Below, piece by piece: positions 6,118-53,976 of a stretch of 64,000 nt of DNA. A program made the translations under genes and the position numbers. Source of the DNA: Octopus vulgaris (Eukaryota); contig OX597817.1 of the NCBI GenBank assembly GCA_951406725.2, forward strand, positions 55,738,001 to 55,802,000. Reading direction: 5' to 3'. Each line of letters starts with the position of its first letter. Position 1 is the first letter of the stretch. The notes beneath the pieces were generated by a model, which saw nothing but the letters and a program-made list of their open reading frames with translations, searched no databases and was not told the origin of the DNA.

Positions 6118-6178
6118 GACAAAACTCTGAGTTTCGGATGCCAAGGTGGAAATCCACACCACCATCTCTTCAGTTATC
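6118..6178 (-). ncRNA. Type-I hammerhead ribozyme motif (Penelope-like element associated)
   Basis: Minus strand: GATAA-CTGAAGA-GATG...CATCC-GAAA-CTCAGAG-TT-TTGTC; stem I GATAA/TTGTC, stem II GATG/CATC, stem III ACTC-A-GAGT, GUU site. Confidence 0.7.
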
Positions 6179-6995
6179 CGGCCATCGGATATATATTTGC
6201 TTACACACAACTTTTTTGTGCAGTTTCTAACAGCGAAATTCCAATCACACTGCAGTAGTCAACCTAAGAAAACAGCACATTTGGAATGGAACCCGGATCC
6301 AAGCGTTTGAGGAAAATATTTCTTTGCCGCTCACCTATTCCCGAAAATTTATGCATAAATAATTCAGAAAGGTTAATTTTGTCGCTTATAACTCCTCCCC
6401 ATTTTGAGTGACGGTTTTGTCTTCACCAATGGTAATCGATATTTCAAAGTGGCAATAATTTCTCAATGAAGCGTAGGGAGAAGACGTGAGAGAGAGAGAG
6501 AAAGAGAGAGAGGGAGAGAGAGAGAGAGAGAGCAAGAGTAATAGAGGAGAGAAAGATAGAAAGAGAGAAATGTGAGTGATGATGAAAGGAGGTAGAGGAG
6601 ACATAGAGTTTTAACGGAACCGAAGTCGATAAGTAGATGATACTTTTGAATTACAATGTAAAGTAGGGGTTGTTGTTGGTGTGGGTGGTGGTGGTCCTTA
6701 GCTCCGGGTCAAATTTGATCAAGCAGACCAATGAGAAAGGGACTTGTATGCAAAACCCAAATCCACTATTTTTGTTTTATTTTGGCGAAGTGTGACTTAG
6801 TACCACGTGTTCTGGTATGTTCTGTCCAAAGTTTAGAATATGGAGGTTCTTCGGATTATCAATTCGAAATGTATTGTGTGCTTTAGCATTTAATCAAAGC
6901 ACATTTAAAGCCATCAAGTTATTAAACCCTAGACGTTATCGAGCCTATGTCAGCCACTGTTGGCCCTTAACATGAATGTGCAAACTTGTATGAGA

Positions 6996-7514
6996 TACAT
7001 TATTTTCATTAGTTACACTTGACGGATATTTGTCCTCAACTTGTTTGTTGTTGACACAACATTTCGACTGAAATTTCGAACCTGGGTTCTCATTCCAAAG
7101 GTATTTTTCAATGTTAATATTCTTATTCTTATTTTTCTTATTATTATTAATCAGGTGGCTGCTTGGAATCGAACTCGGAATCTTGGGGTTAGTAGCCCGC
7201 GCTCTTAACCACAACGTTATATGGAGTGAATTTTCGGACTTATAAATGCATTTTCATATTCTTCCTTACTACTACTACTACTACTACTACTAATAATAAT
7301 AATAATAATAATAATAATAATAATAATAACATCGAAAAATACCTTAGGAGTGAGAACCCAGGTTCGAAATTTCCTCCAGACACTTGATGAAGGCTGGATG
7401 GTTATATGACCGAAACGTTGTGTTAACAACAAACAAGATGAGGACAAATATCCGTCAAATATAAATAATGTAAATAATCTACGTAATTCCTCATCTCTTA
7501 AATATAGAACTATA
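6996..7514. mobile_element. Fold-back insertion of a non-coding element with tRNA-derived segment and hammerhead motif
   Basis: 6996-7115 is an inverted copy of 7328-7472; tRNA-like segment on the minus strand at ~7153-7216; hammerhead-like motif 7380-7423; candidate TSD TTGTATGAGATA (6986-6997) / TTGTATAAGGTA (7515-7526). Confidence 0.75.
7380..7423 (+). ncRNA. Minimal hammerhead ribozyme motif, core mutated (TTGATGA)
   Basis: ACAC-TTGATGA-AGGCTGG...GACC-GAAACGTT-GTGT; stem I ACAC/GTGT, palindromic stem III ACGT. Confidence 0.65.
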
Positions 7515-7944
7515 TTGTATAAGGTAGTTTAAAGAGTCTGGCAGCTGCTCATATGGCATCTCCCCCTTCCCGGTCATACATTTATATCCGATGGAGACGT
7601 CGCCAATTTGGATTGATATTGCATGGCACCAATGTTGTGCAGGTGAAGTTGTTAGAATGCAGAGTAGTGGAATAGATACTACACAGTGTTTCGTCCAACA
7701 GTTCGCCAAACGTTTTCTCCTTTGGTCTACCATTTTATCGAACCCCAAATGATATGATGTAAATTATAATGATAATGAAATTATTGTATAAAGTTTACTA
7801 CAGCAAGAATTGAGGGCAAAACGTAAAGTCAAACCAAATTCCATGTAGAGCGGTTGTTCTCAACCGGACTCCATAAATCCTTGTGGGTCCATATAAATAT
7901 AAATTGCTTTTACTTCATGCAATATTTTTATATCTTTCTATAAT

Positions 7945-8342
7945 AATCCTTTCTACTCTAGGCACAAGGCCCGAAATTTTGGAGGAGGGAGTCAGTCGAT
8001 TAGATAGACCCCTTTACACAACTAGTATTTAATTTATCGACTCCAAAGAATGAAAGGCAAAGTCAACCTCGGTGGAATTTGAACTCAGAACATAAAGACA
8101 AACGAAATACCTATTTCTTTACTACCCACGGGGGCTAAACACAGAGTGGACAAACAAAGACAGACAAACAGATTAAGTCGATTATATCGACCCCAGTGCG
8201 TGACTGGTACTTATTTAGTTGACCCCGAAGGGATGAAAGGCAAAGTCGACCTCGGTGAAATTTGAACTCACAACGTAACGGCAGACGAAATACTGCTAAG
8301 CATTTCGCCCGGCGTGCTAACGTTTCTGCCAGCTCGCCGCCT
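7945..8342 (-). mobile_element. SINE family A, partial tandem dimer
   Basis: Core AAAGGCAAAGTCRACCTCGG...TTTGAACTCA occurs twice with one head and two different tails. Confidence 0.85.
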
Positions 8343-8358
8343 TATCTTTATACAATAA

Positions 8359-52068: not shown

Positions 52069-52389
52069 TCATTAATATATTAGTATCTTAATGTTATTAA
52101 TATTTGAAGGGAAAATATGAAAGTCTGACGTCAGAAAGTTTCTTTATAAATCTCGACCTTTTCTCTAATTATCCTTTTGGTCTAATGACTGAAACAAATT
52201 AAAAATGAAAACAATAAAAGATGAAAGTAATTCCAACAAATTGTTTGTGGATATCATACGTTTACAATAATCAGACGGTAGTTTGAATATAAGATAAGAG
52301 ATCTTCCATAAAAGGCAAATATTTATCCTTTTGCCATATTTTGTGAGAAGTAATGTGCCAGCATTACCGTGAGGTTTTTGTCATATATA

Positions 52390-52608
52390 CAGGTTTGGCC
52401 AAAACTCACTCGACAGTAAATTAAAATTCCATTAGCACTATCTGGAATTCTGTATTGACTCGAATGGAAAAATGGTGTCGCTCAGGAAGGAGGTCCATGA
52501 TGTTTCATATTTAGGTACTTTTATTAAATTCATTTAGTTGTTAAACATAAATAAATCTTGTAATTAAATGGTTTTGGTTTACTGTCAAGTGACTTTTGGC
52601 CAACCCTG
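52390..52608. mobile_element. Tc1/mariner MITE
   Basis: 31-bp TIRs CAGGTTTGGCCAAAACTCACTCGACAGTAAA / TTTACTGTCAAGTGACTTTTGGCCAACCCTG (28/31), TA on the left. Confidence 0.85.
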
Positions 52609-52795
52609 TTTATTATGTTTTTTTATCTATTTGCCACTTCTGATAAATCCATTTCTGAAGAGAGACTAGGAATATCCCCATTTGTTTCGGTCAGAGTGCT
52701 TATGACATTTACCTTATGTATGAACTATGTAGATACGAGTTCAAAGGAGTTGTCCCTATCGTTTTCAAATAGACAAACCAGTACATGACAAATGA

Positions 52796-53113
52796 CACGG
52801 ATAAAGTGATAGTATGTTGTCAACTTAATGCGACAGTCCCATAAAAGGGAAGAATGCTACTGTTATTTAACCCTAGGAAACACCGTTTCCACTTGGACTT
52901 GAAACATTCCCAGGATGCTGGCCTTGCTGGGTGGAGGTGCTTGTCTCCACTTCGAAAACATAAGGACATAGGAAATGCGTCAAGTCCAACAGGAAACGGT
53001 GTTTCCTAGGGCTAAATAACAATAGAATTCTTCCCTTTTATGGGACTGTCACATTAAGTTGACAACGTACTATCACTTTATCGTGCTGCTACTGCATAAA
53101 TCTCTCTATTTTG
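52796..53113. mobile_element. Fold-back pLTR-like element with 12-bp TSD
   Basis: ~105 bp arms 52796-52902 / 52979-53085; TSD AAATGACACGGA (52790-52801) / AAATGACATGGA (53114-53125). Confidence 0.85.
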
Positions 53114-53499
53114 AAATGACATGGAATCAGTTACGACTTATAACGAATTGGTTTCTGCTGTCAAAACTTCTGTATTCGTTATGTTGTACACAGCTTGGAT
53201 TCATTTTTGTTTTATTTCGCTCTGCTTTGTAGAATTTAGAAAGTAGTACTTTTATCCAATAACAACTCTCCTCCAGGCGAGGGAGATAGAACTCTTGATG
53301 TATGATCCACAAATATAATACAAGGAAACCAATACCAGTCCTAGATTATTCAGCAAAAAGAGATATTTACTGTGAAGTCCAACACAAAGTGCCAACATCA
53401 ATCAGAAATTTCTTGAAGCCTTTAGTTTCGTCTACATCGTTTGTTTGAAGATATAAACATAGCTACAGCTTTCCTAAAATGAGAACACCATCAACATGA

Positions 53500-53976
53500 A
53501 TTAGAAAATTACTATTTGTAAATCTCATAACGAGAGATATTCAGCAACAGTACTTTGGAGAAAAGATTATTTGCCAACAAAACATGGCAATCCTGGTTTA
53601 GGACAAATGCTGCTGTAATTTAGCCCCTGGACACAGATCGTGTCGTATAGCCAGCTGGAGACGATGTTAGTAATTTTCTAATTTATAAATCAGTGACTCG
53701 TTGTCATTTGGAAACTGTATATTTCAAACGGCAATTTGGCAGCGCCACCTCTAGCCGAACAGTTATTCTATGCTGATGACGGGAAATAACCCGGAAATCG
53801 CGATATACGGATATTGTTTTGAGCTGAGCGGGGGTGCTAGATTCCTTTGTTCGAAAATATAAGGACACAGATCGAGTCGTATAGCCAGCTGGAGACGATG
53901 CCTCCTGAGGCTAAATTACAGCAAGATTCGTCCTAAACCAGGACTGTCATGTTATGTTGGCAAATAATTTTTATTC
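53500..53976. mobile_element. Fold-back pLTR or retrozyme-like element with hammerhead and 14-bp TSD
   Basis: TSD CACCATCAACATGA (53486-53499 / 53977-53990); arms ~53556-53630 / 53903-53978; internal direct repeat GGACACAGATCG.GTCGTATAGCCAGCTGGAGACGATG. Confidence 0.85.
53768..53810 (+). ncRNA. Minimal type-I hammerhead ribozyme motif
   Basis: CTATG-CTGATGA-CGGG-AAATAA-CCCG-GAAA-TCGCGA-TA-TACGG; perfect stem II, palindromic stem III ATCGCGAT, weakened stem I. Confidence 0.8.

Follow-up and report, generated by a model that had tools for sequence, protein, structure and literature searches.

Hammerhead-type motifs in an Octopus vulgaris genomic stretch derive from Penelope-like elements and non-coding units, with a changed core box in the youngest Neptune-type lineage

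The 64,000-nt stretch of the Octopus vulgaris genome analysed here, referred to as the window (contig OX597817.1, positions 55,738,001 to 55,802,000; G000:C4:55738001-55802000 in our numbering, from a 2.8-Gb genome of 227 contigs), contains a series of minimal type-I hammerhead ribozyme motifs with a palindromic stem III. We report that these motifs are real hammerhead-type folds, which come from Penelope-like elements (PLEs) and non-coding passengers. In the reading that we favour, with a probability of roughly three in four, they are folds of PLE terminal repeats, with four families as ends of coding elements and three as non-coding units that were likely copied in trans, and the youngest Neptune-type lineage keeps the fold with U instead of A at core position 6 (U6), for which slow or conditional cutting is predicted. 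The population as a whole belongs to a known kind, while a U6 core carried by an autonomous, expanding lineage is new as far as we could check in the literature.

The window has a GC content of 35% and is rich in microsatellites. An initial annotation made from the sequence alone had listed ten hammerhead stretches, seven as intact and three as decayed, and all ten are indeed in place. The seven supposedly intact sites do carry motifs, but the exact core occurs only at 6118, 15676, 19498 and 53768. The site at 15235, taken for a CUGANGA box, reads CUGUAGA and has a G-to-A change in stem III; its U6 is the state of the family and not a sign of decay, and the annotation missed this core of the most abundant family. 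The motif at 13158, thought to be decayed and cut at 13200, is complete to 13243, with a long loop II. Those at 48687, whose GAAA box is gone, and at 48175, a near-single relic, were rightly called decayed. A type-I descriptor that tolerates at most one core mismatch and requires a palindromic stem III together with stems I and II returned 10 matches, compared with a mean of 1.87 and a maximum of 7 in 100 local dinucleotide shuffles of the window, none of which reached 10; a comparison with shuffled sequence had been proposed in the annotation as a genome-wide check, and within the window it came out in favour of the motifs. Six of the matches are annotated sites, one overlaps 7384 and three are chance-like, and the descriptor misses 15676 (a mismatch in stem II) and 15235 (two changes). 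A plain pattern gave 11 matches against 4.13 in the shuffles (0/100 as high). An Rfam scan of the window gave no hammerhead family among the matches listed (150 of 549).

The window sites fall into eight families, seven of them multicopy, and all eight have the palindromic stem III that it had described for PLE-type minimal type-I hammerheads. Each family has its own palindrome, the one of family A being unpaired at its centre. The CUGANGA, GAAA and NUH boxes represent the family majority in A (the window's subfamily), B, D, E, F and G, whereas the extra base after A9 and the G10.1-C11.1 pair are present in B, C and H, the families A, D, E, F and G deviating beside the core. Stem I varies among subfamilies with its pairing kept (UACUCA/UGAGUA in most family E copies, UACUCG/CGAGUA in the window copy). 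None of the eight monomers folds beyond z -2.4, and such monomer z-scores carry little information. Genome-wide, the pattern CTGANGA..GAAACGTH occurs 22,215 times (1,417 for the reversed pattern), CTGTNGA..GAAACGTH 26,547 times (1,466) and CTGANGA..GAAACGYGTH 1,498 times (271). The net number above control, ~47,100 or 1 per 59 kb, is a lower bound, since exact boxes were demanded and three forms of stem III were covered. The looser descriptor found 12 matches in 150 kb outside the window (50 kb adjoining it and 100 kb chosen arbitrarily), where ~4.4 are expected by chance at the window's shuffle rate, which amounts to ~1 per 20 kb. Hence, the annotated density of about one per 10 kb suits the window, which has ~1 per 8 kb and is about twice as rich in descriptor matches as the 150-kb sample, but is too high for the genome (at least 1 per 59 kb by the strict count, ~1 per 20 kb by the looser one).

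A tblastn comparison of three clade proteins with the window revealed no PLE protein (best E 0.47), as the annotation had stated; however, a window free of such frames does not imply non-autonomous elements, because reverse transcriptase (RT) or GIY-YIG endonuclease lies upstream in longer copies of families A, B, C and D. No such linkage was found for E, F, G and H. The family C stretch gave 1,600 first-look candidates, and by way of locus L116 (loci are given as L numbers) a young family was reached that counts 22,262 candidates, its frames being up to 1,214 aa long. Intact elements have the order repeat, open reading frame (ORF), repeat, with motifs 4,470-4,573 nt apart around the frame in 5 loci, and nine young copies on 7 contigs differ at 0-8 positions over 1,700 nt (at most 0.5%). 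The encoded protein (P0004) has an RT domain (RVT_1, E 1.7e-7), a DKG motif, a CX4CxxC linker and, at the C terminus, a GIY-YIG domain. The linker finger is common to Neptune and Nematis, and we take family C to be of the Neptune type from its long linker and from motifs of that clade. In the window's own subfamily, a Neptune-type GIY-YIG domain lies 909 nt upstream of the motif in L028. When 19 of 20 young copies were aligned (L411 gave no alignment), the 3' ends fell at +137 to +139 in 17 of the 19, whereas the 5' ends were spread from -44 to beyond -1,694, eight of them beginning within 90 nt of the motif and three of those at one site. Fixed 3' ends with ragged 5' ends read as the pattern of truncated reverse transcription. 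Approximately 10.6 kb before the window, the 210 nt of L129:9175-9384 match the end, on the 3' side, of an intact young Neptune-type element at 100% identity. In the sequence runs X1, X2, X17 and X19 (assembled contigs under four organism labels), the young Neptune-type repeat was found at 0.7 or more of the sampled words, and related species may have the lineage in common.

Family A, with 2,893 first-look candidates mixed with a neighbouring repeat, adjoins a Hydra-type GIY-YIG domain ~0.8 kb upstream of the motif in L277. Young relatives of L277 show all four Hydra criteria, i.e., DKT, a CxCX5C linker, a C-terminal GIY-YIG domain and a (TA)n insertion, and this young Hydra lineage comprises 24,386 first-look candidates; Nematis and Naiad were considered as partners of family A and rejected, as DKT and CxCX5C fit Hydra. 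Hydra copies have ragged 5' ends like the young Neptune copies and often lie head-to-head. Young Hydra-type elements also form arrays at 2.58-kb spacing and frequent head-to-head pairs, e.g., at C1:57208908-57222524, and the frames in L335 and L328 have the RT active-site motif YKDD. Family D (660 first-look candidates) has, one step upstream, the CxCX5C linker and GIY-YIG domain in 11 of 25 loci, seven of these with E < 0.001, and shared sequence links motif and endonuclease in L238, L256 and four loci with the motif in range; among the Hydra criteria it shows the linker and endonuclease only. An RT near the family D copy in L258 was set aside as a neighbour, as it falls outside the sequence common to the family or on the opposite strand. 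L230 and L258 also hold another Hydra-like family with the 3' end GUCGAAAC and a palindrome, in which no clear first box is seen, possibly a further core variant. In family B, L003 has the order RT thumb, GIY-YIG, 3' untranslated region, motif, and L121 has a 569-aa frame (RVT_1 E 2.7e-6) with an inverted motif upstream; P0002 and L121 show RT with C-terminal GIY-YIG, no linker finger being seen, and an inverted upstream repeat. Read by their sequences, families A to D represent the 3' ends of protein-coding PLEs that were truncated on the 5' side.

Families E, F and G are of another kind, i.e., non-coding head-to-tail units of a few hundred nucleotides with a GC content of 0.31-0.38 and a type-I hammerhead that resembles the PLE variants. 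Family E (31 first-look candidates) has a period of 391-410 nt in 7 of 25 loci and two tandem hammerheads in L055; its window copy reads GAAG where the family mostly has GAAA. Family F (1,434) has a period of 551-613 nt in 4 of 25 loci, a fold z of -3.9 and, in L223, more than one unit with a single motif. Family G (1,432) has a period of 353-354 nt in 8 of 25 loci; L300 holds two complete units in tandem, the unit runs from its 3' end straight on into its 5' start, and its circular fold reaches z -6.4 against 40 base shuffles. No ORF above 28, 23 and 66 aa was found in the G, E and F units, respectively, and a walk upstream from family F met further copies of the unit and no ORF. Endonuclease fragments near the F copies in L214, L230, L231 and L232 lie outside the shared sequence or on the other strand and were rejected as neighbours. 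From their sequences, E, F and G likely fit non-LTR (long terminal repeat) retrozymes, and they would be mobilised in trans. The non-autonomous mobilome proposed in the annotation would hold for these three families but not for A to D. Family H yielded 2 first-look candidates and one partial relative in the genome.

A change that looks new lies in the core of family C. When positions 6 and 7 were left free, a 28-nt pattern matched the genome 16,194 times (control 0), and a flank-anchored pattern 13,402 times (control 0); a hand count of the first 100 flank-anchored matches gave U in 98, C in 1, G in 1 and A in 0 at position 6, and U in 46, A in 26, C in 17 and G in 11 at N7. Strict U6 copies number ~25,000 genome-wide. 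U6 is present in both repeats of intact elements and in 44 of 45 aligned copies from ORF-linked loci, the remaining one being gapped, and the one contig of organism label B that covers position 6 of the Neptune repeat has it unchanged. Counting a column as variable when a variant was common to at least 4 of 40 copies, 0/21 core and stem columns varied compared with 26/80 unanchored flank columns (Fisher p=0.0014), and the varying sites inside the motif are N7, H17 and one CpG in loop II. When 34 repeats were arranged in a tree with the core box left out, the 23 U6 rows fell on a single branch (91/100; recovered in 93% of bootstrap trees), which lies inside 11 A6 relatives (2 older A6 copies and 9 copies of an A6 sister family), a placement that points to a single origin of U6 from A6 relatives. 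U6 spans elements whose endonucleases are 73-88% identical to the young one, and an A6 copy adjoins an endonuclease with 65% identity. A shifted register of the U6 motif, UUGAAGA, was rejected on inspection, since the U7 subfamily alone agrees with it and both stem I and stem II are disrupted. The predicted probability of G5-C15.2 pairing is 0.44-0.98 in 4 U6 copies vs 0.00-0.11 in 4 A6 relatives, and the U6 monomer is predicted to misfold by pairing its first box with GAAAC.

The young Hydra lineage carries a change of its own in the same box, and this core, like U6, is predicted to cut poorly. Its motif has 3,861 exact matches, C4 is found in 94 of the first 100, and N7 is again the varying site; C4 occurs in 29/32 motifs of endonuclease-linked young Hydra loci, whereas the window's subfamily has U4 in 25/25 (spurious matches, 9/41, 1/34 and 1/26, were left out of the motif tallies). 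The direction from U4 to C4 would follow from age and not from a tree. We hold it as a tentative possibility that the CUGA turn changed independently in those autonomous PLE lineages of this genome that have been most successful (A6U in Neptune, U4C in Hydra), with the fold kept under selection; either a core position regarded as invariant would then be free to change in the dimer or together with the protein of the element, or the hammerheads would be mainly a structural signal.

Known PLE biology suggests how such copies may arise. At a nick, the RT of the element would begin copying from the 3' end of the RNA and in most cases stop early, leaving a solo repeat with a hammerhead, while two motifs could pair through the palindromic stem III into a dimer able to cleave the precursor; the 353-610 nt units would pass through more-than-unit-length or circular RNA. 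Inserted copies extend 60-110 nt past the cleavage site, and therefore the 3' hammerhead of the template was presumably uncut before copying. Damping the ribozyme, by A6U or, in young Hydra, U4C, with the fold kept would then cost little and possibly retain more full templates. For U6, weak or conditional cleavage with the fold still needed is the outcome that we favour by a little; no cleavage at all, with a structural role, is rather unlikely, and efficient cleavage appears less probable again.

The conserved U6 motif might also be a dead relic riding on a successful element, its conservation reflecting a sequence requirement, e.g., protein binding, and not the fold. The damage done by changes at A6 is known, Naiad PLEs have spread while lacking a hammerhead altogether (Craig et al., 2021, 10.1101/2021.04.23.441226), and blocks of the flanks, such as alignment columns 216-226, are invariant too. 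However, strong variation is confined to N7 (four states) and H17 (A or U), which are the positions left free by the hammerhead, stems I-III are fixed on both strands, and U6 is kept across lineages with endonucleases only 73% identical; we consider a dead relic doubtful. Conversely, U6 might be a variant of full activity when dimerised or together with the protein of the element, the known core consensus being too narrow. The hammerhead-like pattern of variation and the ~25,000 strict copies would agree with this, as would the activity kept by some natural core variants (PMC3088659), but A6C cleaves at < 0.1 per minute (PMC3088659), CUGA mutants are not rescued by second changes (PMC9901934), the monomer is predicted to misfold and even canonical PLE hammerheads cleave poorly in vitro (PMC4209133), which makes full activity improbable.

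That all motifs form one large, separate non-autonomous ribozyme population, as the initial annotation inferred, agrees with the non-coding repeat units E, F and G and with the 8/19 young Neptune copies starting within 90 nt of the motif, three at one site. This is very unlikely for the whole set and contradicted for four families, since A, B, C and D run upstream into RT or GIY-YIG frames and have ragged 5' ends. Chance matches in AT-rich, repeat-rich sequence would explain the ~2 descriptor matches per 64 kb in shuffles, the three chance-like matches out of 10, the lack of monomer folds beyond z -2.4 and the single partial relative of 48175; given the genome counts against the reversed patterns and the seven of eight multicopy sites, the probability of this explanation is negligible, and it is refuted for seven families and remains only for 48175.

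Several points weigh against the reading that we favour, i.e., PLE terminal-repeat folds with a damped U6 core. The evidence consists of genome sequence and folding prediction, and the sequence runs searched are assembled contigs. The 40 copies of the column test were hand-picked from the first 100 to span subfamilies and all come from the first 21 Mb of C1, its columns are not independent of the tree, the loop II CpG column varies in 5/40 copies, and H17 has only two common states (A or U); the U6 branch, at 91/100, is not starred. The clade names rest on motifs and not on a tree with named references. For the non-coding families, the fold of the E unit does not surpass that of shuffles (z -0.2), the search for a protein partner of E, F and G gave none (with upstream extension by further search for F only), and local tandem duplication would give similar periods in all three. 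Moreover, one of 25 family D loci has a 635-nt period, and family D may also have a non-coding form; head-to-tail recurrence is also seen in family A, in 1/20 loci.

Table 1. Hammerhead-bearing features of the window, ordered by position.
Feature	Position	Strand	Evidence or remark
Family A, Hydra-type PLE 3' end, ends in (TA)n	6068..6189	-	96% to L277
Family A hammerhead	6118-6178	-	core CUGAAGA; stem III odd palindrome ACUC-A-GAGU
Decayed inverted partner of family B copy, head-to-head	6996..7268	-	sequence match
Family B, Penelope/Poseidon-type PLE 3' end	7267..7516	+	86% to L081
Family B hammerhead	7380-7423	+	C3U change; stem III ACGU
Family D copy	13016..13243	+	complete hammerhead 13158-13243, long loop II, stem III ACAGGUGU (one mismatch)
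Family C, Neptune-type PLE 3' end, then (TA)n	15150..15375	+	window site 15235
Family C hammerhead	15239-15274	+	core CUGUAGA, U6 at 15246
Family D, older Hydra-type PLE 3' end	15466..15823	-	81% to L238
Family D hammerhead	15676-15759	-	stem III ACAGCUGU
Inverted family D fragment directly upstream of 15676 copy	15828..15904	+	sequence match
Family E, non-coding ~400-nt unit, retrozyme-like	19013..19371	+	period, tandem motifs in L055
Family E hammerhead	19148-19205	+	A15.1G change, stem III UCACGUGA
Family F, part of non-coding ~550-610-nt unit	19456..19738	+	period; L223
Family F hammerhead	19498-19557	+	exact core, stem III ACGCGU
Family H, decayed relic	48175..48215	-	box CCGACAA, stem II GGCC/GGCC, stem III ACUUCGAAGU, no good stem I
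Family A-type copy, decayed; hammerhead without GAAA box, preceded by an inverted 3' end	48654..48742	+	motif 48687
Inverted family G fragment upstream of 53768 copy	53496..53635	-	90% to L300
Family G, non-coding 353-nt unit, retrozyme-like	53668..53978	+	period, tandem units in L300
Family G hammerhead	53768-53810	+	exact core, stem III AUCGCGAU

Older family G fragments that lack the motif lie at 52926-53034 and 61896-61949 of the window. The family H relic is located 75 nt downstream of, and antisense to, a frame at 47876-48100 (+) that is bounded by AG and GTAAGT and has no Pfam match, possibly a host exon. Further hammerhead families occur outside the window (L182, L183, L184, L195, L007, L012, L014), some as close inverted or tandem pairs. 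Additionally, the window contains a 5S ribosomal RNA-like sequence at 1753-1863 (-), above the Rfam gathering score (62.7 bits) and with an 8-nt gap, which is likely a pseudogene or the head of a short interspersed element; a tandem duplication at ~22860-25400, in which one stretch recurs after 1,763 nt (at 22867 and 24630) and 183-nt repeats lie at 23255 and 25018; and a 147-nt tandem repeat at 9202-9493 in two copies, 88% alike.

Solo, heterogeneous minimal hammerheads, probably from truncated PLEs, are known in thousands per animal genome, with ~2,000 in Schistosoma mansoni, 4,000 in coelacanth and 9,000 in Xenopus (Cervera and De la Pena, 2014, PMC4209133), over 6,000 hammerheads are reported from a coral (PMC7229834), and PLEs have already been described as abundant in coleoids (PMC8967140). 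In the literature searched we found no cephalopod hammerhead survey. The window motifs resemble the minimal hammerheads of metazoan PLEs (PMC4209133) in their type-I topology, short stem I, palindromic 15.2-16.2 and loop 3, and U-rich 5' flank, in families B, C and H also in the extra base after A9, as well as in being mostly solo, with several families per genome, inverted pairs and few full repeat-ORF-repeat elements; such palindromes let two motifs pair and cleave the precursor (PMC4209133; PMC6765202). In contrast to that survey, whose descriptor fixed the catalytic boxes and whose supplement, in the part covered, gives the first boxes as CUGANGA or UUGANAA, we find U6 in family C and C4 in young Hydra, a position other than G-C beside the core in stem II of families F and G, and a strict count of at least 47,000 instead of 2,000-9,000 per genome. 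If the changed-core reading is true, surveys based on CUGANGA would overlook more than half of this genome's strict ACGU-type motifs (26,547 vs 22,215).

The coding elements agree with the endonuclease-positive (EN+) PLEs of Craig et al. (2021, 10.1101/2021.04.23.441226), which have an RT with C-terminal GIY-YIG, partial tandems and inverted 5'-truncated copies: family C with Neptune (DKG and the CX4CxxC linker), family A with Hydra (DKT, CxCX5C linker, (TA)n insertion), family D with Hydra by its linker, and family B with Penelope/Poseidon, no linker finger being seen. Unlike the Hydra of that study, known from few families, one lineage here is young and abundant. Families E, F and G are similar to non-LTR retrozymes (PMC7229834; 10.64898/2026.07.22.740005) in being non-coding and of low GC, in their type-I hammerhead, in occurring as monomers and short tandems, and in co-occurring with PLEs, and family G folds well as a circle (z -6.4). 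They differ in having PLE-type variant hammerheads, in lying mostly as dispersed one-to-two-unit insertions with inverted pieces and, for family F, in a unit above 450 nt; they are known here from genomic copies. Li et al. (2026, 10.64898/2026.07.22.740005) argue for non-LTR retrozymes being non-autonomous PLE derivatives, with 1/9 dimers cleaved.

Natural CUGA substitutions have been described by Perreault et al. (2011, PMC3088659), namely A6C in phage Bcep176 and U4C in a viroid, the latter being the change found in young Hydra; U4C is strongly reduced in vitro yet viable in the viroid, and A6C works better in Mn2+ (PMC7151607). The accessible text of Craig et al. (10.1101/2021.04.23.441226) mentions no core substitutions for PLE hammerheads, whose role it calls unclear, and A6U or a CUGUNGA hammerhead was not found in the literature searched, which did not cover Lunse et al. 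on PLE hammerhead variants. The remaining PLE ends and the few retrozyme-like families described here add members to known kinds. In contrast to the rare single cases of Perreault et al., however, A6U dominates an expanding lineage here, and one lineage offers a natural series that comprises A6 relatives, a derived U6 clade in which N7 takes four states, and intact elements that are nearly identical, with a parallel U4C. If the fold is indeed kept with poor cutting, cutting is not what these elements keep it for.

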